DNA of 64,000 nucleotides from an uncultured delta proteobacterium (GTDB taxonomy: Bacteria; Desulfobacterota; Desulfobacteria; Desulfobacterales; B30-G6). The DNA is taken from contig CAVUUM010000026.1 in NCBI GenBank assembly GCA_963744665.1, forward strand, positions 97,270 through 161,269, written 5' to 3'. A model generated the notes under the pieces. That model made no database searches, had not been told where the DNA came from, and saw nothing but the letters and a program-made list of their open reading frames with translations. Positions within the stretch are counted from its first letter, which is position 1. Each line of letters starts with the position of its first letter. Below are positions 15,115 through 28,946 of the stretch, in pieces. Made by a program: the position numbers and the translations under genes.

Positions 15115-16500
15115 CTATATGAGTCCTTTGCTCTCTAATCGCTTGACACAATTGATGTCAATATCCAGGATTTTGGCAATACGAATTTTAGCCTCAATTC
15201 CCTTCACACATCCAGGTAGTGGGGAAAGACTGCCCATCTCCAAATCTTCACGGATTTCCGTCATTACCACCGGATCGGAAAGATCATGAACTGAAACACG
15301 CAACTTGTCTGCCACATAGGCCTTGGCGTCGTTTATCTTCATACCACGGGTCATCTGCATTCGTGCCACCAGATCTCCGGCAGCCCGCATTCCACCCATG
15401 CCCGAGGCAATAGCGTGGGAAATAGCCATGCCTAACGGATCACCTACGCCAACCTACAACCCGTCGAGCCGGCAGATTTCCACCATGGCCGCAGAGGCGC
15501 GGGATGTAATGTCCACCGGCGGGTGATTGGTCATGGGAACACCGCCGACGCCCATACCCATGTTCGCATGGATCGGAATGTTGGCCACGTCACAGCAGGC
15601 TTTGGTAAAAGTAATGGCCCGAGCCAGATTCCAGGGGCAGGAATGATTGGTTTTGACATTGACCACCGGTCCAAAAATTGTCACGCCGGCTTTTTCCGCC
15701 ATCCTGACTTGATCATGGGCATACATACCGGCCAAGCGTTCGCCCTGGTACCTCAAATCCCCGTGCATTCCTAGAACAAATTCCCCTGCCATTCCAAGTT
15801 CAATACAGATACCGGGATACTTTTCATTCAGAATTTCAGAAGCCTTCAAACCGGCAAGGAAATCAGCATCCCCCGCCGCACCTACGGTATCAAGATTGAC
15901 ACCGTCTGCTCCGGATTCAACCATGGCGCCGGCAACAAAGACAATATCTTTGACAGCGGCCTCTACTGAATTCTCATAAGATTTTTGAACTTCGTCAATC
16001 TTTCCCATGGTCAACAGTTCCGAGGGATTTTGAAAAGGACCGTCCGGTTGGGTATACAAACCCAGGTTCGGCATGGCACCGTAGAAGAGTGGCGGGTGCG
16101 TCACCATCAATACTTGCTCCAGAACGGTTTGTTCCATGCTCACAATCGGTTTGACCTGCTTGTAGCTGTAGTCGATATGACCCAGTTCAAGGGTATCCGC
16201 TCCCAATAGCTTTTCATAGACCTGCAATGCTTGAACACGATGGACATCGATGGCAGTGCGCATCATCTTGATGGGTGCACCGTCATAAGAAAGTACGACT
16301 TCATTACCAGGTTCCACACCCACAAAACGATACGGTGTCATAAAAAGATCGAACAGGTATAGCAGCGCTTCTTTTGAAAGAGGGGCAATCCTGCCGTATT
16401 TGGCAGCATTTTCCGCACCTTCAACCAGATCGCTCATGAGTTGTTTTTCAGTCATTTCAACGGGAAACCCATCACCCATTCGTGTCATTATTTTTCCCAT
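15115..16500 (-). CDS. mtbB: Dimethylamine:corrinoid methyltransferase with in-frame UAG (pyrrolysine) at 15456..15454
   Basis: ORFs 15454..16500 and 15115..15429 share one frame and are separated only by TAG plus 8 sense codons. The joined sequence reads ...[45 protein letters not shown]. That matches my memory of the region around the Pyl codon in Methanosarcina MtbB. The N-terminal part ([40 protein letters not shown]) is also MtbB-like. The joined length is 461 codons. Confidence 0.85.
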
Positions 16501-16949: not shown

Positions 16950-18449
16950 CTATTTGGAGACTTTGAGTTCCTTTTCTGCTTCCTCCACAATCGCTCGCAT
17001 GGTGGCCAGAACATCATCGGGCAGCGGGTCAGGCTTGTGGGTTTCTAAAATACGCCGCGCCTCTTCCGAAGCCCTTGCATATATATCTGTACTGCCGGAG
17101 GCCTCCCATTCTTCCCGCATCCTGCGATCGATGAGTTTAGGCTGGGATTGAGACCGCATGTGTTTGAACGTGGCATCATGACTGAGGAAATTTTTCCCTA
17201 TCCCAATCTCCCGAATGACGTCCACTGCCAGCGTTTCGTCGTTGACGGGGATTCCATGCAGCAAGAATTTGATCATCTTGGCAAATTCGTTGTCCATAAC
17301 CAGTTGGCCGAAATCGATGGTCATGCCCATTTCGATCATACCCAGGCCGTAAATCAGGTTGGCACCTGCCAACGCTGGTAACAGGCCTGTGATGGTTTTC
17401 TCGTGACCGGACTGGGCATCACAGACTTTGCTGTCGCCCTACCCGCCAGCGACCCAGCTGGGAAGCAGATAGTAGATGGACATTTGAGCCACCGCGGCGT
17501 TGATCAAAGCACACTCAGGAGATCCCACGGATGCGGCAGCCAGCCTCAGATCCATGGCCGTCGTGGAACTGCCGTAAATAAATTTCGCTCCTTTACGGGT
17601 ACACTGACTGAGCACAAGTCCTCCAAGGATTTCCGCGTTATGATCCACCAGGGTGCCGGCCAAGGTCACTGGAGACGAGCCACCGGCCATGGCCATGGAT
17701 AAAACATTTACGGCCAAATCTGCCCGAGCGGATTCCATGATAATTTCACAGCTGTCCTTAACAAGCTGCAGCGGACTCACCGGGCAGGTAATAAACGAAA
17801 TAATGGGACGCTCTTTCAGTTTTTCCTTGCCGCCGACAATGGCAGCGGCCATTTCAACAATTTTTTTGGTCAAATATCCATTGCCGGACCCCATGAACCC
17901 ATGTTTGGTCGTGTTGGGCAGCCAGGCTTCGGCGTTATGAAGCTGCACCGTCTGCGTCGGCACATCACTGGCGCCAACGGCCCGTTCATAAACATCGATT
18001 TCGCTCAGATAGTCGGCAATCAGAGCCGAGGCAGCCACATCCGCCTTGGTCGTCTCCCGATGCTCCCCCGTGTATGGGTCGTTAATAAAAACGCCTTCCC
18101 CAAAATTAGTGAAGCCTACGCGGTTTTTTTCCATAATAAAGTCGTTTTTTGAATCACGCCCGTACAACACAATTTTTGGCGGTGCTGAACGGATGGCGTC
18201 CTCAACCATGTGAGGGGGGAACTTGGCTATACGGTTCTTTTTGTCGATGACAGCGCCTCCGCCATCGAGGACAGCCAGCGCCTCTTCATCCTCGAAAAAA
18301 AGACCGGTCTTTTCCAGAACCTCAAGTGTGGCCAGATGAATTTCATCCATTTCCTCATCGGTAAAGACCTTGAATTCTAGGCCACCATCCCTGCTTTTTC
18401 CTGCTCGCATATTGCGTCTCAAGAAATCACCTCCTTTTGGTTTTACCAA
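16950..18449 (-). CDS. mttB: Trimethylamine:corrinoid methyltransferase with in-frame UAG (pyrrolysine) at 17441..17439
   Basis: ORFs 17439..18449 and 16950..17372 share one frame. I read the codons across the gap as ...[50 protein letters not shown] with no other stop. The joined length is 499 codons, with the UAG at codon 337. That size and position fit my memory of archaeal MttB. Confidence 0.85.
17385..17426 (-). other. 10-bp stem-loop in the mttB mRNA, starting 12 nt 3' of the in-frame UAG
   Basis: In the sense RNA, GUCUGUGAUG (17426..17417) pairs with CAUCACAGGC (17394..17385). That gives 9 Watson-Crick pairs plus one G-U and a 22-nt loop. The G-U position is a C-A mismatch on the opposite strand, so the structure is specific to the sense strand. 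Confidence 0.4.
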
Positions 18450-19588: not shown

Positions 19589-21595
19589 ATGACAGTTGTA
19601 TTGGGTATCGATACGGGCGGGACATATACAGATGCGGTTCTGATCAATTATGAGAACGGCAAAGTCCTGTCGAGTGCCAAGTCTTTGACGACGCACCAGG
19701 ATCTTTCCACCGGTATCCATGCGGCTGTCACGTCCGTTATGACCATCAATCGCAAAGCTATTTCCCCCAAAAAAATCTGCCTTGTGGGTCTGTCCACGAC
19801 CCTTGCTACCAACGCCATTGCAGAAGGGCACGGCGTCCCTGTTTGTCTTCTATTGATAGGGTATGACCGGGACTTGATCCATCAATACCGTTTCCAACAT
19901 GCCTTGGGAACACCCAATGTGGTCTATCTGCAAGGTGGGCATGACCAGCAGGGCAACGAACGTCGACCCCTGAACGAAGATGCCGTCAAAAATACCATTT
20001 TAAAGTGGCGAAAAAAAATCAATGCCTTTGGCGTCTCGGGCTATTTTGGTGCATTCAACCCGGAACACGAATTAAAGGTCAGAACATGGATAGAAGACCT
20101 TACAGATCTTCCGGTGACCTGCGGTCATGAACTTTCCACGCGTCTGGACGCCATCCGCAGGGCAACAACCGTGGCCCTGAATGCCCGATTGATTCCCATC
20201 ATACAAGATCTGATATTCAATGTCCGTGCCACCCTGAAAGCCCTGTCCATTCCGGCACCACTGATGGTGGTAAAGGGTGATGGAAGCCTGGTTCAAGCGG
20301 ATTGGGCCTTGAAGCGGCCCATCGAAACGGTCCTTTCCGGCCCGGCCGCAAGCGCACTGGGGGCCCTGAAACTCACCGGGGGAAAAAATACATGGGCTGT
20401 GGACATGGGCGGAACCACCACTGATATTGTCGAGCTCATTGAAGGTGCGCCGTCGCTCAATCCGAATGGAGCCTGTATTGGCGGATGGCGGACCATGGTT
20501 GAAGCCGTAGATGTTCACACCATAGGACTTGGAGGAGATAGCCATGTCCGTGTGTCTTCCGAAAACCAGTTGGTTATAGGTCCTAATCGTGTCATACCGC
20601 TATGCAAACTGGCCAGTGAATACCCGGACAAGGTAATGGGTACACTGAGAGCCCTTGGTAATTCAGACAAATCTGATCTGGATGCTACCCAGTTTCTGAT
20701 TTCGGGAAAAGCAGAACAACCCCAACTGTCTCAAAACGACGCAACACTATTGGCAAAATTGGATGATGGACCCCAACCGCTGACAACCATCACCGGCCCC
20801 GCTGCTTATGCAGACCCATGGATTTCAAAACGTATCCAGAACCTTGCAGAAACAGGTCTAATTCAATGCGCAGGCTTCACTCCAACGGATGCGCTGCACG
20901 TCCTGAAATGTTTTCAGGAATGGGATGCAGAGGCATCTCTACTGGCGGGCAAACTTCTATCCACCCATCTTGGATTGCCCACAGAAGTATTCTGCAAACA
21001 GGTGGTGGAAACCGTGTCCAGAAAGACCGCAACAGCCATTGCATCCAAGGCTATCACAGACGAAATGGGGAATCCTGATTGGAAACAGGTGCAAACTGAC
21101 GGGTTTCTGCTGAATAAAGCCCTCAAACAAGACCAGAAAGGAAAATTGATTCCAGAAATCAGATTGAAGCATCCCCTGGTCGCTCTGGGTGCGCCGGTAA
21201 CAGCATATATGCCCGGAGCCGCAGATATCCTGAGGACCGGGCTTTCAATTCCTGAATTTGCGGAGGTAGCCAACGCTATCGGAGCTGTCAGCGGTCAAAC
21301 GGTTTTACGACTCAGAATCCGCATCCGACCCATAAGCGGAAGTCAAAACGTCCGGCTTCTTTCCCCTCACAGCCCCAGGGATTTTTCTAATATTGAAGAA
21401 GCCGTTGAATATGCCATGGGTCACATGACACCCCTGGCAGAAGATATGGCACGTCAGGCCGGTGCCAAACATGTGCAGGTGCAGGTAATCCGAAAAGAAA
21501 AAAAGGCCAGAGCGAAAGGAAACAAAGAGGTATTTCTTGAGACCGAATTGACTTTCATAGCCCTTGGAAGACCGGCCATGGCATTTAAACAGTAA
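19589..21595 (+). CDS. Hydantoinase/oxoprolinase-family (ASKHA-fold ATPase) protein
   Basis: 668-aa ORF. The N-terminus VVLGIDTGGTYTDAVL and the later AVDMGGTTTDI are the two phosphate-binding motifs of the hydantoinase A family. Confidence 0.7.
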   Translation: MTVVLGIDTGGTYTDAVLINYENGKVLSSAKSLTTHQDLSTGIHAAVTSVMTINRKAISPKKICLVGLSTTLATNAIAEGHGVPVCLLLIGYDRDLIHQYRFQHALGTPNVVYLQGGHDQQGNERRPLNEDAVKNTILKWRKKINAFGVSGYFGAFNPEHELKVRTWIEDLTDLPVTCGHELSTRLDAIRRATTVALNARLIPIIQDLIFNVRATLKALSIPAPLMVVKGDGSLVQADWALKRPIETVLSGPAASALGALKLTGGKNTWAVDMGGTTTDIVELIEGAPSLNPNGACIGGWRTMVEAVDVHTIGLGGDSHVRVSSENQLVIGPNRVIPLCKLASEYPDKVMGTLRALGNSDKSDLDATQFLISGKAEQPQLSQNDATLLAKLDDGPQPLTTITGPAAYADPWISKRIQNLAETGLIQCAGFTPTDALHVLKCFQEWDAEASLLAGKLLSTHLGLPTEVFCKQVVETVSRKTATAIASKAITDEMGNPDWKQVQTDGFLLNKALKQDQKGKLIPEIRLKHPLVALGAPVTAYMPGAADILRTGLSIPEFAEVANAIGAVSGQTVLRLRIRIRPISGSQNVRLLSPHSPRDFSNIEEAVEYAMGHMTPLAEDMARQAGAKHVQVQVIRKEKKARAKGNKEVFLETELTFIALGRPAMAFKQ

Positions 21596-21789: not shown

Positions 21790-22587
21790 ATGTTAATTGT
21801 TGGAGAACTGATCAATGCAAGCCGAAAGACCATTGGCACGGCCATTGAAATAGAGGACGGGGAAAGCATAGCAAAAATCGCCAGAGATCAGGCCGAAGCC
21901 GGTGCTGATTTTATTGATGTCAATGCCGGTGTTTTTGTCGGTAAAGAGCCTGAATACCTGGAATGGCTGGTGAAAACTGTTCAAGCAGCCGTCGATAAAC
22001 CCTGCTGCATAGACAGCCCGGACCCCAAGGCCATCGAAAAAGCGCTGGCTGCCCACAAAGGCATAGCCATGATCAATTCCATATCCCTGGAAAAAGAACG
22101 CTATGACACCCTGATGCCCATCATTGCCGGAACCGATCTTAAGGTGGTAGCCCTCTGTATGAGCGACGAAGGCATGCCGGAGACCACCTCGGATCGAATG
22201 AGAATTGCCGATAAACTGATCAACGGTCTCATCCAGAATCGTATCCCCTTGGAAAATATCTATGTAGATCCACTGGTTCAACCCGTATCCACGAACAACA
22301 ACTTTGGAGTGGAATTTCTGAACGCCATCCAACAAATTATGAATACATTTGACGGTATTCACACGGTTTGTGGTCTTTCCAATATCTCATTTGGCCTGCC
22401 TCTCAGAAAATTTCTGAATCAGACATTTATGAGCATGGCCATTGCCAAGGGACTTGATGGGGCCATAGTCAACCCGCTGGACAAGAAAATGATGGCCAAT
22501 ATCATTGCAGCAGAAGCCCTTGCCGGCAGGGATGATTATTGCATGTCATACCTCAAGGCCTACCGGGCAGATCTCTTTGCATCTTAA
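21790..22587 (+). CDS. Methyl-corrinoid:tetrahydrofolate methyltransferase (pterin-binding, MtrH/AcsE-like)
   Basis: 265-aa ORF with GELINASRK, AGADFIDVNAG, INSISLE and VCGLSNISFGLP. These are hallmarks of pterin-binding (DHPS-like) methyltransferases found in bacterial corrinoid methyl-transfer systems. Confidence 0.75.
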   Translation: MLIVGELINASRKTIGTAIEIEDGESIAKIARDQAEAGADFIDVNAGVFVGKEPEYLEWLVKTVQAAVDKPCCIDSPDPKAIEKALAAHKGIAMINSISLEKERYDTLMPIIAGTDLKVVALCMSDEGMPETTSDRMRIADKLINGLIQNRIPLENIYVDPLVQPVSTNNNFGVEFLNAIQQIMNTFDGIHTVCGLSNISFGLPLRKFLNQTFMSMAIAKGLDGAIVNPLDKKMMANIIAAEALAGRDDYCMSYLKAYRADLFAS

Positions 22588-22637: not shown

Positions 22638-23279
22638 ATGTCTGAAATAATTTACCAGGAAGCCATGGAGGCTATCCTGAAGGGTGATGTGGACAAAGCC
22701 GTTGACACCGCCAAAAAGGGGATCGACATGGGTATGGATCCTTTGGACCTGATGAACAACGGTTTCATCTCCGGCATCAATGAAGTGGGCGACCTTTTCG
22801 AAACCGGCAGACTTTTTCTGCCCCAGCTGGTTATGTCCGCCTCGGCCATGGAAAAAGCCACGGAAATTATCAATGCGGCCATTCCAGAAGGTAAGGGAAC
22901 CATATCCGGGAAAGTTTTGGTGGGGACGGTCGAGGGCGACGTACACGACATTGGAAAAACCATTGTCGTGGCCCTGTTCAAAGCCAATGGCTTCGATGTA
23001 CTGGATATCGGAAGGGACGCACCCATCGAACGTTTTATTGACGAGGCTGAAAAATTTGGAGCCGATATTATCGGTTCGAGCACCCTTTTAACCACCACCA
23101 TGGCCGTGCAGAAACAGATCGAAGAGGAGTTAAAAAAAGCCGGTATAAGGGATAAATACAAAACCCTTGTGGGCGGTGCTCCTGTAACCCAACGATGGGC
23201 AGACCGAATCGGTGCCGATGCCTATGCCCAGGATGCAAGCGACGGTGTGCGCAAGGTTAAGGAATTGTTAGCAGGCTAG
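22638..23279 (+). CDS. Corrinoid (B12-binding) methyl-carrier protein, MttC/MtbC-like
   Basis: 213-aa ORF with an N-terminal helical cap and GTVEGDVHDIGKTIV (DxHxxG) plus SSTLLTTTM and GGA. It ends in TAG (23277..23279). Confidence 0.85.
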   Translation: MSEIIYQEAMEAILKGDVDKAVDTAKKGIDMGMDPLDLMNNGFISGINEVGDLFETGRLFLPQLVMSASAMEKATEIINAAIPEGKGTISGKVLVGTVEGDVHDIGKTIVVALFKANGFDVLDIGRDAPIERFIDEAEKFGADIIGSSTLLTTTMAVQKQIEEELKKAGIRDKYKTLVGGAPVTQRWADRIGADAYAQDASDGVRKVKELLAG

Positions 23280-23382: not shown

Positions 23383-23456
23383 GGGGAGTGGATCGCAATG
23401 GGATCGTGTGGACTCTAAATCCACATAGACGGGTGCAACTCCCGTACTCCCCGCCA
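23383..23456 (+). tRNA. pylT: tRNA-Pyl, anticodon CUA (amber suppressor), CCA encoded
   Basis: Folded by hand. The acceptor stem pairs GGGGAGU with ACUCCCC. The anticodon stem is 6 bp (UGUGGA/UCCACA) with loop CUCUAAA, placing CUA at 23415..23417. The variable loop is 3 nt (UAG). The T arm is ACGGG-UGCAACU-CCCGU, without the canonical T-loop sequence. The discriminator is G, followed by CCA. A long anticodon stem, short variable loop and single base between acceptor and D stem are the known oddities of tRNA-Pyl. Confidence 0.9.
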
Positions 23457-23533: not shown

Positions 23534-24376
23534 ATGACAATCTCCTGGACACAAACACAGATACGACGACTGAATGCCTTGAATGCCCCGGGCGCGGCAT
23601 TGAAAAAGACCTTCGATGACAAACCCGCGCGTGAGAATGCTTATCAAGCCTTGGAAAAATCACTGGTGATGACTCAGCGACAGCAGTTGGCGGAATTTCA
23701 AACCACGCCCGGCTGTCCCGAACTTTGCCGGCTTGAAACCAGGCTTGTCCGTATTCTGACGCAAGCCGGATTTGCCCAGGTAACGACCCCCATCATCATG
23801 TCCAGGGGACTGTTGAAGAAGATGTCAATCGATGCAAAGCACCCGCTCAATTCCCAAATATTCTGGCTCCAGGACGATAAATGCCTGCGACCGATGCTGG
23901 CGCCCCATCTCTACTATCTCCTGGTTGACCTGCTCCGCGTTTGGGAACGACCTGTACGAATCTTTGAAATTGGCCCCTGCTTCCGAAAAGAATCCAAGGG
24001 AGCGAAACACGCCGGTGAATTTACCATGTTGAACCTGGTTGAAATGGGTACCCCCGAGAAAACCCGGAAAGAAAGAATCCTGAATCTGGGCGCACGTGTG
24101 GCCACGGCAGCAGACGTGAAAGACTTTCGTTTTGAGACAGTGTCCTCGGAAATATACGGCGACACCATCGATATCGTCGCCGGAAAAGACAATCTCGAAA
24201 TTGCCTCTGCCGCCATGGGGCCACATCCTCTGGATCGGCCATGGAAGATAAGTGAATCCTGGATCGGAATCGGTTTTGGTCTCGAACGCCTCCTGATGGC
24301 CTCCCACCAATCCAGGAACCTTGCCAGGTTCTGTCGAAGCCTGTCTTATTTAGACGGCGTCCGGTTAAATATTTGA
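23534..24376 (+). CDS. pylSc: Pyrrolysyl-tRNA synthetase, catalytic C-terminal polypeptide (bacterial split form)
   Basis: 280-aa ORF with class II aaRS motifs LRPMLAP, FEIGPCFRKES and IGIGFGLERLL. It lies immediately 3' of the CUA tRNA. Confidence 0.9.
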   Translation: MTISWTQTQIRRLNALNAPGAALKKTFDDKPARENAYQALEKSLVMTQRQQLAEFQTTPGCPELCRLETRLVRILTQAGFAQVTTPIIMSRGLLKKMSIDAKHPLNSQIFWLQDDKCLRPMLAPHLYYLLVDLLRVWERPVRIFEIGPCFRKESKGAKHAGEFTMLNLVEMGTPEKTRKERILNLGARVATAADVKDFRFETVSSEIYGDTIDIVAGKDNLEIASAAMGPHPLDRPWKISESWIGIGFGLERLLMASHQSRNLARFCRSLSYLDGVRLNI

Positions 24377-24479: not shown

Positions 24480-25676
24480 ATGAAAGTAGCGATCATCGGT
24501 GGTAAACTTCAAGGGCTTGAAGCGGCATATCTTGCCGAAAAAGCCGGCTGGGATGTGACAATCATCGATCGGGCGCCCGATGTGCCGGCTGCGGGTCTCT
24601 GCCACCAGTTTTTGCTTGCCGACATTACCAACCAAACAGACTTGAAGCGCTTTCTGCAACCGTTTGACCTAATCATACCGGCCCTGGAGAACCATGACGC
24701 TTTAGCGTGTCTCCAAAATTGCGCACAAAATGACAGAACACGCATTCTTTTCGATTTCGATGCCTATGCCATCACCTCCTCCAAGATTGAATCGGACAAA
24801 CTGCTCGCCGGCATCCACATCCCCACCCCATCATCCTATCCCGACGGTGGTTTTCCTGTTATCGTCAAACCAAGTAGAAGCAGCGGCAGCAAGGGAATTT
24901 GTGTTGTTCATGATTCAAAACAACTTGAATCTCATCTTGCAACGGCACCCGGAGAGCAGGTCATTCAGAAATTTGTCCATGGCCCCTCATACTCCCTGGA
25001 AATCATCGGCTACCCGGGAAACTATTGTCCCCTCCAGGTAACCGAACTTGAAGTGGATCCGGTCTTTGATTGCAAGCGGGTGATTGCCCCCTCGGGTCTT
25101 TCCCAAAAAATGATTGCGGATTTCGAACATATCGCCGTCACCACTGCCAACGCCCTAAAATTAAAGGGTTTGATGGACGTAGAAGTCATTCTGGATTATG
25201 AGGTACTGAGAGTTCTCGAAATCGATGCGCGCCTCCCCAGCCAGACACCCATAACCGTGCATACCTCCACCGGTGTCAACATGCTTCAGTTGCTGGCAGA
25301 GCAACATTGCCGGCCGTCACACAATGGGGCGGGTATTGCTGTTGCCCAGAGAGGTGTCGTGTATGAGCATATCAGGGTTAGCGGCAGCACATTGGTTGTC
25401 ACGGGTGAACATGCCATGGCATCCGCAGGCGCTCTCCATCTGGTAGAGGATTTTTTCGGTGCCGATGAAGCCATCACCTCCCAGACGGGCAACCGGACGG
25501 ATTGGGTGGCGACATTGATCATTTCCGCAGAAAACAGAACCACGGCATGGGAGAAACGGGAGGCGGTTATCGCCGATATTATGCGTTTTTTTAATCTCGA
25601 CACCTACAGGGACCACAGCCCGTTCCATTATGGTGCTGACGAGCCATCCCTGACGTTGAAAGGATCATTCAAGTGA
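24480..25676 (+). CDS. pylC: Pyrrolysine biosynthesis ATP-grasp ligase
   Basis: 398-aa ORF. MKVAIIGGKLQGLEAAYLAEKAGW, FDFDAY, VIVKPS and LEIDARLPSQTP run parallel to my recollection of Methanosarcina PylC. Confidence 0.85.
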   Translation: MKVAIIGGKLQGLEAAYLAEKAGWDVTIIDRAPDVPAAGLCHQFLLADITNQTDLKRFLQPFDLIIPALENHDALACLQNCAQNDRTRILFDFDAYAITSSKIESDKLLAGIHIPTPSSYPDGGFPVIVKPSRSSGSKGICVVHDSKQLESHLATAPGEQVIQKFVHGPSYSLEIIGYPGNYCPLQVTELEVDPVFDCKRVIAPSGLSQKMIADFEHIAVTTANALKLKGLMDVEVILDYEVLRVLEIDARLPSQTPITVHTSTGVNMLQLLAEQHCRPSHNGAGIAVAQRGVVYEHIRVSGSTLVVTGEHAMASAGALHLVEDFFGADEAITSQTGNRTDWVATLIISAENRTTAWEKREAVIADIMRFFNLDTYRDHSPFHYGADEPSLTLKGSFK

Positions 25677-26521
25677 CCCGGCTGACATCAAGTGATATTC
25701 AAGGCATTTCCGAAGAACTGCCCGCATACGAATCATCACTGATGAAAAAAACCGGTTGCTCCCTGCGACAGCTTGCCTGTCGGGCAATGAAAGTGACTGA
25801 AATAGATGTCCAGACATCTTTGGAACACACCCTTGTGGGTGTCATACCCATGACATCGGGTGGCGGCGTATTAAAAGGATTTTGTGGGACTGTGGCAAAG
25901 ATTGTCAACCACATCGGTTGCAGAGCCTTTGCTACACGGAGTACGGATGCTTCGGGTATCGCCGAAGCAGTGGAAAAGAAGGCCGACATCCTCATGTTTG
26001 CCGATGAAAATCGGTTTGTCGCCCTTGATATGCAGCACCGCAAACTCATGGACAATGCCGATGCAACCGGCAGGGGCTTCGTGGCGGGTCTGAACCTCAT
26101 GGCAGAGAGCTTGAACGATCAAAAGGTACTTGTCCTGGGATGTGGTCCGGTGGGGCAGAGCGCGGTGAAGGCCCTGGCAAAAACGGGGTGCCGTATTTCT
26201 GTCTACGACATCGAAACAAAAGCATACGACCGCGTATCAACGGAATTCAAGAACGACCCGGATATTGAGATTCAATTTTTGTACAACCTTGATCTGGCAT
26301 TGCATCAACACGCACTCATGGTCGATGCATCCCCGGCGGGCGGTTTCATTGGGGCGCGGCATATCAGTCCCCATACGATTATCAGTGCTCCCGGTATGCC
26401 TCTTGGCCTTGACAGGTCAGCGCTGGCAGCCATCGGCGGCAGACTCCTCCACGACCCGCTTCAGATCGGGGTGGCAACCATGGTGGTCGGTGCTTTAGCC
26501 CGAACATTTCATGAAATTTGA
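25673..26521 (+). CDS. pylD: Pyrrolysine synthase (NAD-dependent dehydrogenase)
   Basis: 282-aa ORF with IPMTSGGG, ILMFADENRF, VLVLGCGPVGQSA and SAPGMPLG, as in PylD. A 4-nt overlap joins it to pylC. Confidence 0.85.
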   Translation: MTRLTSSDIQGISEELPAYESSLMKKTGCSLRQLACRAMKVTEIDVQTSLEHTLVGVIPMTSGGGVLKGFCGTVAKIVNHIGCRAFATRSTDASGIAEAVEKKADILMFADENRFVALDMQHRKLMDNADATGRGFVAGLNLMAESLNDQKVLVLGCGPVGQSAVKALAKTGCRISVYDIETKAYDRVSTEFKNDPDIEIQFLYNLDLALHQHALMVDASPAGGFIGARHISPHTIISAPGMPLGLDRSALAAIGGRLLHDPLQIGVATMVVGALARTFHEI

Positions 26522-26593: not shown

Positions 26594-26935
26594 ATGAAAT
26601 CAAAAAAACCAGCCAAACGATTTTACCGCAAACGGGTGGAGCTTTTCCGTCTGATCGAGAAGATAAAACTCTGGCCAGCCAGAAGCGGTCTCCTCCACGG
26701 TATCAAATCCATCGACATCATGGGTGACCAGGCCCGTATCACAACCCATTGCAATAAAACATTCATGGTGAACAACTCCCGAAACAGCCGCGCGGCAAGA
26801 TGGCTTCGCAACAAATGGTTCAATGGGGCCTGCGGCGCATGCGGTGTCCCTGAGTGGAAACTAGAAAAATATGCGTCCACACAATTCAGACGTCACTTTG
26901 GGTCACAATTGCTGAAAAAGACTGGACCCGAATAA
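26594..26935 (+). CDS. pylSn: Pyrrolysyl-tRNA synthetase N-terminal tRNA-binding polypeptide
   Basis: 113-aa basic ORF (KRFYRKRVELFRLIEKIKLWPARSGLLHGI...HCNK...ARWLRNKW...CGACG). Its size, position after pylD and Cys/His pattern fit bacterial PylSn. Confidence 0.75.
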   Translation: MKSKKPAKRFYRKRVELFRLIEKIKLWPARSGLLHGIKSIDIMGDQARITTHCNKTFMVNNSRNSRAARWLRNKWFNGACGACGVPEWKLEKYASTQFRRHFGSQLLKKTGPE

Positions 26936-27115: not shown

Positions 27116-27805
27116 CTATGACACACCAAATCCCGCTTCAATTTTTGGATCATAGGCAGCCTTTCGAGAAGGACAATCCTTGCGGTCACAAAGCTGGCAA
27201 CTGATAAATGGAACCTCTGTGGGAAAATAGATACCGGACACCGATTTTGCAGGAATCATCAGGCAGCTGCTGTTAAGGGAAACATTGATGGGGGTTTTCC
27301 CATCCCCAAACAAAGCAAACAAAGGCCGCTGTTCTTCCAGAGGCCAATCTGTCAATGACCCCGGGCTCATAAAGGACATACCCTCGAGGCCATACCCCGC
27401 CTGCAGCGTTTGTTCGAGATAGTTTCGCACGGTACTCAGGGCAATGTTGCCGATCACATCCAGATAGTATTTCACCACCAGGTCTTTCTGGGCATCCATC
27501 TGCTCCAGATAATGGCTTCCGATAGTAACAACAAATGGGAACACCCGCTCCACCGCTGCCAGGTTTTTTGCCAGCACCCGGCTCCTGAAACGCACCCCAT
27601 CAATACCGATGAGTTGGTCCTGCTTTTCATCGATATAGCAAACCCGGTAGACCGCTTTTGCCCGAATATCCGGCAAGATCGTCTGGATGAGAGTCTTGAC
27701 TTCGTCCCAGCGTGCACCCCTTTTCAGGTGAAGCTGGCGCCTGATTTCCCCAAAAGGCAAAGATAAAGGTATTTTTTCAAGAATATGCATTTTTTCTTCC
27801 AGCAT
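27116..27805 (-). CDS. Methionine-synthase activation-domain-like protein (corrinoid reactivation domain) with a C-terminal Cys cluster
   Basis: 229-aa ORF. SPGSLTDWPLEEQRPLFALFGDG...INVSLNSSCLMIPAKSVSGIYF resembles the MetH AdoMet/activation domain. The C-terminus reads CQLCDRKDC. It ends in TAG. Confidence 0.55.
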   Translation of the reverse strand: MLEEKMHILEKIPLSLPFGEIRRQLHLKRGARWDEVKTLIQTILPDIRAKAVYRVCYIDEKQDQLIGIDGVRFRSRVLAKNLAAVERVFPFVVTIGSHYLEQMDAQKDLVVKYYLDVIGNIALSTVRNYLEQTLQAGYGLEGMSFMSPGSLTDWPLEEQRPLFALFGDGKTPINVSLNSSCLMIPAKSVSGIYFPTEVPFISCQLCDRKDCPSRKAAYDPKIEAGFGVS

Positions 27806-27855
27806 CCGAACATCTATATCCGCTCAAAATATATTTTCAAGCGTTTTATCACGTT

Positions 27856-28946
27856 AGGGGACGTTCCTTTATATGTTGACAATCTAAAATTTGTCTGCAA
27901 TAAAACACAAATGCCACGCCAATCAAGAATAGACGCCCCTGGGGCTTTGCATCATATTATTGTGAGAGGCATCGAAAAAAAACCAATTTTTCGAGATGAT
28001 GCCGATAGAGATAACTTTTTGGAGCGATTGAAAAACATCTTGAAAGATGACGCAGCATTTTGCTTTGCATGGTCCCTAATGCCCAATCATGTTCATTTGC
28101 TTTTGAAAACCGGAAACACATCGATCTCAACTATTATGAGACGGCTTCTTACGGGTTACGCAGTCTATTATAATCGCAAACATGATCGTGCGGGCCATCT
28201 ATTTCAGAACCGATACAAATCGATTCTTTGCCAGGAAGACACATATCTTTTAGAACTGGTAAGATATATCCACTTGAACTCCCTCCGAGCAGGTATTGTA
28301 ACGGATCTTGAGTCGCTTGATAGATACAAATACAGTGGTCATGCAACAATAATTGGTAACGATAAGAACGACTGGCAAACTACTGAATATATTCTTGCTA
28401 TTTTTTCTGAAAGGCTATCACAAGCGCGCCGGAGATACCGGAAATACATACAAAAAGGAATATCTGCGGGGAAAAGACCGGATCTCGTTGGTGGTGGCCT
28501 TGTCAGGAGTGTTGGTGGCTGGCACGCTCTCAAGGATTTGAGAAGAAGAAAAGCGTACATGAAAGGAGATGAACGGATCTTGGGCGACAGTGATTTTATC
28601 AAAAATGTCCTTCAATCCTGTAGGGATGAATATGAACAAAAATATTTATTAAAAGCCAAAGGATACACTTTTGATACCGTTGTCGCTCGTGTCGCCGAAG
28701 TATTAGGCATGGAAAAAGCAGACGTTTTGTCAGCAGGTAGACAACCCCTACGGGTAAAGGCCAGAAGATTGTTATGTTTCTGGGCATCACGAGAACTCGG
28801 TATAACCATGGTGGACTTGGCCAAACGTTTAAAAATATCACCGTCGACCGTAAGCCAATCAGCTAGCCGTGGAGAAAAAATCGCAAAAGAAAGCAATTTA
28901 AGATTATTATGATGCAACATTATCAACTTATCAAGGAACGTCCCCT
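27856..28946 (+). mobile_element. IS200/RAYT-like unit: Y1 transposase gene bracketed by a perfect 13-bp inverted repeat
   Basis: aggggacgttcct at 27856..27868 and its exact reverse complement aggaacgtcccct at 28934..28946 flank the CDS 27911..28912. Confidence 0.6.
27911..28912 (+). CDS. REP-associated tyrosine transposase (IS200/Y1 HUH) fused to a C-terminal DnaA-C-like HTH domain
   Basis: From the Met at 27911, MPRQSRIDAPGALHHIIVRG...PNHVHLLL (HUH)...LVRYIHLN (catalytic Tyr region). The C-terminus RLLCFWASRELGITMVDLAKRLKISPSTVS is HTH-like. The ORF-track start at 27785 is probably too far upstream. Confidence 0.75.
   Translation: MPRQSRIDAPGALHHIIVRGIEKKPIFRDDADRDNFLERLKNILKDDAAFCFAWSLMPNHVHLLLKTGNTSISTIMRRLLTGYAVYYNRKHDRAGHLFQNRYKSILCQEDTYLLELVRYIHLNSLRAGIVTDLESLDRYKYSGHATIIGNDKNDWQTTEYILAIFSERLSQARRRYRKYIQKGISAGKRPDLVGGGLVRSVGGWHALKDLRRRKAYMKGDERILGDSDFIKNVLQSCRDEYEQKYLLKAKGYTFDTVVARVAEVLGMEKADVLSAGRQPLRVKARRLLCFWASRELGITMVDLAKRLKISPSTVSQSASRGEKIAKESNLRLL

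Follow-up and report, generated by a model that had tools for sequence, protein, structure and literature searches.

We describe a trimethylamine methyltransferase gene, mttB, which we read through one in-frame UAG codon and which contains a conserved predicted hairpin a short distance downstream of that codon. The gene lies in a stretch of 64,000 nucleotides (nt) from an uncultured delta proteobacterium (contig CAVUUM010000026.1, positions 97,270 to 161,269); the whole stretch is referred to as the window, and its features are collected in Table 1. It is very probable that the minus strand from 18422 to 16950 constitutes a single mttB gene of a Desulfobacterales-type bacterium, encoding a pyrrolysine-dependent trimethylamine:corrinoid methyltransferase of 490 residues, and we infer from the gene content that position 328 is pyrrolysine (Pyl). 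As such, the gene is a further case of a kind that has already been described. The hairpin appears not to have been reported for mttB before; strong constraint on synonymous sites, together with covariation, in about 155 bacterial mttB genes of the UAG type indicates that selection acts on it at the nucleotide level.

The minus strand from 18449 to 16950 consists of 500 codons in one frame, in which the TAG at 17441..17439 is the sole internal stop. Two open reading frames (ORFs) of 336 and 140 amino acids (aa), located at 17439..18449 and 16950..17372, share this frame and are separated by a gap of 66 nt. A first-pass annotation, made from the letters of the window, had joined the two ORFs into one mttB gene read through one UAG, and we arrive at the same gene. 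The length of 499 codons and the placement of the UAG at codon 337 given there are corrected here, as they rest on the mechanical ORF start at TTG 18449, which is unlikely to be used. The likely start is instead the TTG at 18422..18420, which gives a product of 490 residues and makes the UAG codon 328. A start codon is present at the aligned site in all 73 relatives checked (ATG in 31, TTG in 27 and GTG in 15), and a Shine-Dalgarno-like motif precedes it in 65 of the 73. The terminal stop of the gene is TAG, with a backup in-frame TGA after 10 more sense codons.

The assignment to the MttB family is based on the joined translation, which reaches 766.2 bits (cut-off 525) with the equivalog model TIGR02369 over model positions 2-469. 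The N-terminal part matches positions 2-313 and the C-terminal part positions 315-469, so that the stop sits on model column 314; its placement between two matching parts is far beyond chance. Family PF06253 is likewise found in both halves of the joined protein. The best match in the PDB is MttB of Methanosarcina barkeri (7XCL/7XCM), with an E-value of 4e-121 and 44% identity over the full length. The first-pass annotation had put the Pyl codon of archaeal MttB at about this place, and alignment of the joined translation with Pyl-type MttB bears this out: the UAG falls in the conserved Pyl column and, entered as X, lands precisely on the X at residue 334 of 7XCL, the pyrrolysine (Pyl334) of the crystal structure (PMC9842639); the same column is K in 7XCM, the second entry of the M. 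barkeri protein. Around Pyl334 in that structure, Gly110 and Tyr364 are fully conserved and Met249 is mobile (PMC9842639); the three residues align with G108, Y358 and M243 of the window protein, respectively.

For comparison, one genome per species was scanned, which yielded 80 loci with 59-95% identity from Desulfobacterales, other Desulfobacterota, Thermoleophilia/Actinomycetota, a metagenome-assembled genome (MAG) of Spirochaetota, and others, with Desulfobacterales MAGs and Olavius Delta 1 as the best relatives. TAG stands at the Pyl column as the only internal stop in 78 of the 80 loci. The two exceptions are a translated match with 19 stops, in which the codon at the Pyl column is unreadable, and a poorly aligned composite match. 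Among the 78 loci, identity downstream of the UAG (59-95%) equals that upstream (60-95%). The internal stop is TAG in all 78 alignable loci whereas the terminal stops vary (TGA in 37, TAG in 22 and TAA in 19), a contrast that demonstrates selection on UAG itself and not on any stop. The 22 codons between the UAG and TTG 17372 are among the most conserved of the MttB protein; within them the residues D, K, D, Q, H, E, K and T are invariant, with synonymous change occurring freely. The conservation of TAG, the equal identity downstream, the contrast between internal and terminal stops, and the coding-like behaviour of these 22 codons lead us to exclude both a pseudogene and a split gene.

A genuine stop at this TAG, which would make the gene a pseudogene or the source of a truncated 327-residue protein with a decaying remnant downstream, could be argued from the fact that other genes of the window end in TAG in the ordinary way and from the public automated gene calls that end the protein there, but it is effectively refuted by the comparative sequence data, as the codon persists across several phyla and is never replaced by TAA or TGA, and an end at codon 328 would moreover deprive the protein of the equivalent of the catalytic Tyr364 and of part of the TIM barrel, which spans residues 82-395 in M. 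barkeri (PMC9842639). The chance that the split-gene alternative is correct, i.e., that a 327-aa protein and a C-terminal piece restarting at TTG 17372 assemble into the enzyme, is similarly minute. In its favour, 76 of 79 sequences retain that TTG, with which the mechanical 140-aa ORF begins, but no Shine-Dalgarno motif precedes the TTG, the highly conserved codons ahead of it evolve as coding sequence, and the M. barkeri protein is a single chain including Pyl334. The conservation of the TTG is explained by the pairing within the hairpin, where the TTG region covaries with codons 354-355.

The public record of the gene reflects the in-frame UAG. Among the closest database proteins (79-95% identity), nearly every one has a length of 327 aa and a query coverage of 67%; these entries are gene calls cut off at the UAG. 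Dozens of relatives are recorded as such 327-aa fragments, and the locus analyzed here is publicly held only as a 323-aa product (P0121, in the cluster of P0002) that runs from an internal ATG to the UAG. Pyl-type mttB genes are thus systematically mis-called in public metagenome annotations.

The machinery required to decode UAG as pyrrolysine is largely present near the gene, with tRNA-Pyl, pylSc, pylC, pylD and pylSn located 5-9.5 kb from mttB. The tRNA scores only 25 bits against the generic Rfam tRNA model, which we take to reflect the atypical structure of tRNA-Pyl. The first-pass annotation had the adjacent pyl cassette supply the decoding machinery; this stands for the tRNA gene (pylT) and the two synthetase subunits PylSc and PylSn, whereas the cassette as a whole is incomplete. 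Several observations here weigh against pyrrolysine at codon 328. A tblastn search with the PylB of a relative found no pylB in the 64-kb window; an independent relative contig (L083, 771..4172) has the same gene order pylSc-pylC-pylD-pylSn, again without pylB; the local set for pyrrolysine biosynthesis is accordingly incomplete, with two of three genes (pylC and pylD); and TAG terminates about 8 of the 51 long ORFs in the window (~16%), mttB included. UAG is consequently ambiguous here, as it is in other Pyl-using bacteria.

The missing pylB leads to another explanation, namely that the UAG is read through without authentic pyrrolysine, by insertion either of a PylC/PylD product of another precursor (e.g., D-ornithine) or of a near-cognate canonical amino acid. 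It can draw further on homologues in which the Pyl column holds a sense codon (for Trp, Ala or Leu) and which nevertheless exceed the cut-off of TIGR02369. Set against this, pylB may lie outside the window, which covers 64 kb of a contig of about 300 kb; a more distant relative (L001, 83% identity) has a radical S-adenosylmethionine gene directly after pylSc; and the invariance of TAG over about 160 genes implies selection for a residue that is specific to UAG. We therefore regard insertion of another residue as very improbable, if somewhat less so than a true stop or a split gene, and retain pyrrolysine as the residue at codon 328.

The hairpin begins 65 nt after the UAG, at position +69 counted from the U of the UAG, and has a free energy of -7.8 kcal/mol. 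Its motif occurs once in the window, with no copy elsewhere in it. Synonymous variability along mttB is near the gene-wide level (ratio 0.87-1.0) except just past the UAG, where it reaches a minimum of 0.40-0.51 over codons 347-358. Among 156 sequences the synonymous entropy ratio is 0.21 at Leu351, 0.10 at Ala352, 0.96 at Gly353 and 0.22 at Ala354, compared with a gene mean of 0.92 (standard deviation 0.14); the constraint on the hairpin codons has a permutation p of about 1e-4.

The constrained codons coincide with a structure that is supported by covariation. RNAalifold recovers the hairpin at +69 to +84, and 98.7% of its cells are paired in an alignment of 78 sequences. Double-sided changes number 14, compared with 2.4 +/- 1.2 in shuffled alignments, and none of 500 shuffles reaches 14; controls in which the hairpin is slid along the same alignment collapse. 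The outer pair, 69-84, joins two synonymous third positions and is GC in 115, AU in 34 and GU in 6 of 163 unique sequences, with 8 mismatched and none of these A·C. A second pair also switches from GC to AU. On a neighbour-joining tree the switch from G:C to A:U occurs at many separate places. The loop, AGGN, is asymmetric, with A75 invariant and N78 free. We had also considered wobble pairs as an argument for an RNA of the sense strand; G·U and C·A cells over the six pairs are equally frequent (17 and 17), which leaves the strand undecided by wobble, and the argument is withdrawn.

Other candidate structures around the UAG did not withstand the same comparison. The remaining helices proposed by RNAalifold between -60 and +213, including a stem of +3..+9 with +22..+28 that uses the G of the UAG and several long-range pairs, all lack double-sided changes, and their pairing drops to 58-87% at several positions. 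A window-specific 8-bp stem (CUGUGAUG/CAUCACAG) is not conserved in other clades. The region also matches the Rfam family PYLIS_3, the pyrrolysine insertion sequence (PYLIS) of mttB. The helices annotated in that family find no support in the 163 bacterial sequences of the UAG type, where pairing at 33-62 and 35-60 reaches only 26-27% and no annotated pair covaries. The PYLIS_3 match thus reflects conservation of the sequence and not of the structure, and the hairpin at +69 to +84 is not among the annotated helices.

An analogous element is found in mtbB, the neighbouring dimethylamine methyltransferase gene, which has an in-frame UAG of its own: TIGR02368 matches at positions 7-355 and 357-461 on either side of this UAG, which falls on column 356. 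The mtbB hairpin consists of 7 bp at +74 to +91 (about 15366..15383) with a loop AGAY and corresponds to the second helix of PYLIS_2. It covaries at two pairs among 63 bacterial sequences, and the Gly codon in its loop is GGA in all 63.

Homologues with a sense codon at the Pyl column provide controls for a link between the hairpin and the UAG. A metagenome scan aimed at such genes returned 80 genes, 78 of which were of the UAG type. The controls are seven close homologues, with 62-69% identity in the hairpin segment, whose codons at the Pyl column are TGG (four genes), GCG, TTA and CTC (one each), i.e., Trp, Ala and Leu. All seven encode the ALAGAN peptide of the hairpin segment, yet none keeps the hairpin; they form 3-5 of its 6 pairs, six of them encode the Leu by CTN, and six use GCC or GCG for Ala352. 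On three contigs a sense-codon copy without the hairpin lies beside a UAG copy with all six pairs, which rules out genomic codon bias as the explanation. On the tree, genes with a sense codon are found at four or five separate positions among the hairpin-bearing UAG genes.

The sense-codon MttB homologues are full-length proteins (L084, L138 and L164-L168; P0001, P0003, P0004, P0006, P0008, P0083 and P0094), and P0001, P0003 and P0008 score 687-733 bits against TIGR02369, the Pyl-type equivalog. Several of them adjoin a UAG-type copy, and automated annotation would call them trimethylamine methyltransferases. Two metagenome genes, L100 and L168, are separated by a neighbour-joining distance of 0.017 (~98% identical proteins) and have TAG and TGG, respectively, at the Pyl column, both without the hairpin; the pair may represent a recent interconversion of UAG and a Trp codon.

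The main competing explanation for the inverted repeat at 17358..17373 is that it is not a UAG-linked hairpin of the mRNA but a DNA palindrome bound by a protein, a feature of an antisense RNA, or a regulatory element of trimethylamine-specific expression. The equal numbers of G·U and C·A cells, which leave the strand undecidable, speak in favour of it, as does the distance of 65 nt from the UAG, which is too far to touch the decoding ribosome. Two further observations are unfavourable to a UAG-linked hairpin: eight basal mttB genes of the UAG type are without it, and so is the consensus of PYLIS_3, which we assume to be mainly archaeal. It follows that the hairpin is not required for Pyl insertion in general. 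On the other side, the composition of the outer pair, with its many AU and few GU combinations and no A·C, indicates pairing and not independent half-sites, and the asymmetry of the loop likewise counts against the competing explanation. In addition, the hairpin is lost in all of at least four sense-codon lineages, including paralogues that share a contig with a hairpin-bearing UAG copy, and the unrelated mtbB has a covarying hairpin at a similar distance from its UAG. We consider a role apart from the UAG unlikely on balance, while giving it far more weight than any of the alternatives discussed for the gene itself.

The gene content and the homology to the solved enzyme suggest how the system could work. 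Codon 328 would be decoded by the tRNA-Pyl with anticodon CUA, encoded 6 kb away, after the split synthetase, PylSc plus PylSn, has charged it with pyrrolysine made with the help of PylC and PylD; PylB would have to be encoded outside the window. Insertion of pyrrolysine would compete with release factor because TAG still serves as an ordinary terminator in this genome. Pyl328 would be placed in an active site with Gly108, Met243 and Tyr358 and would activate trimethylamine, the methyl group of which would pass to the Co(I) corrinoid protein (22638..23279) and would then be transferred to tetrahydrofolate (THF) by the pterin-binding methyltransferase (21790..22587).

The hairpin may help the cell to cope with a slow or ambiguous UAG. 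One candidate role, which is speculation, is that of a pause site for RNA polymerase that keeps transcription coupled to a ribosome awaiting Pyl-tRNA and thereby limits Rho-dependent polarity; an equally speculative alternative is that some unknown factor binds there. Our tentative proposal, which we advance as a possibility well short of an even chance, is that bacterial UAG-type mttB genes carry an unrecognised PYLIS-like cis element (6 bp, AGGN loop, +69 to +84) that is kept only while the gene has its UAG, that has its counterpart at +74 to +91 of mtbB, and that acts on slow or ambiguous decoding of the UAG.

The M. barkeri MttB (7XCL/7XCM/7XCN; PMC9842639) resembles the window protein in its homology over the full length, in the UAG corresponding to Pyl334, in the equivalents of Gly110, Met249 and Tyr364, and in having a cognate corrinoid protein. 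The window system differs in that its host is bacterial and its synthetase is split into pylSc and pylSn, in that the downstream methyl acceptor is a pterin-binding methyl-THF methyltransferase and not a coenzyme M methylase, in the replacement of Thr111 by Glu109, and in the presence of the hairpin at +69 to +84, which is not in the Rfam mttB consensus (assumed to be mainly archaeal).

Counterparts from the same lineage have been described. Pyl-dependent MttB has been published for the delta-1 symbiont of Olavius, a member of the Deltaproteobacteria (PMC1976440), and, with transcript evidence, for marine Desulfobacterales MAGs (PMC8318568). These systems share with the window the in-frame UAG, pylT, pylSc and pylSn, and the arrangement of mttB with mtbB; the window differs from them in that its cassette has no pylB between pylSc and pylC. 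MtgB of Desulfitobacterium hafniense (2QNE, 9YCE) has the same fold, belongs to the same family (E 6e-67) and works with a corrinoid partner, but it is a much more distant, non-Pyl relative with Leu in the Pyl column and glycine betaine as substrate, whereas the window protein exceeds the cut-off of the Pyl-type equivalog.

With respect to the hairpin, a 2007 analysis of bacterial Pyl genes did not find common RNA structures (PMC1976440), and neither for mttB nor for bacterial Pyl genes do earlier papers report a shared structure. The second helix of PYLIS_2 and the bacterial selenocysteine insertion sequence (SECIS) resemble the mttB hairpin in being small conserved hairpins within the coding sequence, 3' of a recoded stop. 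The SECIS, to which SelB binds, starts about 11 nt past the UGA. Unlike for the SECIS, we know of no dedicated factor for the mttB hairpin, which lies 65 nt from its UAG.

The gene itself matters mainly for annotation, as public calls end at 323-327 residues, and for ecology, as its presence points to a Desulfobacterales-type bacterium that probably consumes trimethylamine in competition with methylotrophic methanogens, a role already proposed for the Desulfobacterales group (PMC8318568). Whether a cis signal acts at Pyl codons in bacteria where UAG also remains a stop codon is a long-open question, and a covarying, UAG-linked hairpin provides a concrete object for this question that can be mutated and tested. 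If a role as pause hairpin or factor site holds true, it would be the first comparative evidence of gene-specific handling of UAG in Pyl-using bacteria.

Table 1. Coordinates of mttB, its UAG-associated elements and the neighbouring genes of methylamine and pyrrolysine metabolism in the window.
Feature	Position	Strand	Remarks
mttB, coding sequence	16950..18422	minus	490 codons including one UAG, plus terminal TAG 16950..16952; predicted trimethylamine:corrinoid methyltransferase
In-frame UAG, predicted pyrrolysine codon	17439..17441	minus	codon 328 of mttB
Shine-Dalgarno motif GGAGGTG	18428..18434	minus	5 nt 5' of TTG start
6-bp hairpin GUUGGC[AGGU]GCCAAC	17358..17373	minus	+69..+84 from U of UAG; codons 350-355 (ALAGAN)
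Match to Rfam PYLIS_3 (RF02510, pyrrolysine insertion sequence mttB)	17342..17441	minus	78.2 bits, gathering score 38, E 4.5e-15; model position 1 is U of UAG
mtbB, dimethylamine methyltransferase	15115..16500	minus	downstream of mttB; own in-frame UAG 15454..15456
Match to Rfam PYLIS_2 on mtbB	15357..15456	minus	88 bits
Methyl-corrinoid:tetrahydrofolate methyltransferase, pterin-binding	21790..22587	plus	NF005719 353 bits, cut-off 259; PF00809
Cognate corrinoid protein, MttC/MtbC type	22638..23279	plus	TIGR02370 238 bits, cut-off 215; both B12-binding domains
tRNA-Pyl, anticodon CUA	23383..23456	plus	ARAGORN; cloverleaf fold, short D-loop, 3-nt variable loop
pylSc, catalytic subunit of pyrrolysyl-tRNA synthetase	23534..24376	plus	TIGR02367 310 bits, cut-off 178
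pylC	24480..25676	plus	TIGR03909 397 bits, cut-off 248
pylD	25673..26521	plus	TIGR03911 240 bits, cut-off 150; also PylD_N
pylSn, tRNA-binding N-terminal synthetase subunit	26594..26935	plus	TIGR03912 132 bits, cut-off 51

The plus strand upstream of mttB carries, in this order, a TerC-family gene, a gene for a 668-aa protein, the genes for the methyl-THF methyltransferase and the corrinoid protein, tRNA-Pyl, pylSc, pylC, pylD and pylSn. A scan for promoters and terminators around mttB and mtbB gave nothing informative. TAG is the terminal stop of mttB (16950..16952), mtbB (15115..15117) and the corrinoid protein gene (23277..23279), and for mttB and the corrinoid gene a backup in-frame stop follows 10-14 codons past the TAG.

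The 668-aa protein (19589..21595, plus strand), whose gene is flanked by those for TerC and the methyl-THF methyltransferase, has no family matches in its C-terminal half; its N-terminal half matches the hydantoinase/oxoprolinase and GlmL/MutL (B12-enzyme accessory) families. Its gene occupies a spot where a corrinoid reductive activase of the RamA-like type might be expected. A homologue of the transposases associated with repetitive extragenic palindromes (REP-associated tyrosine transposase, 27785..28912) is located about 850 nt beyond the pyl cassette.

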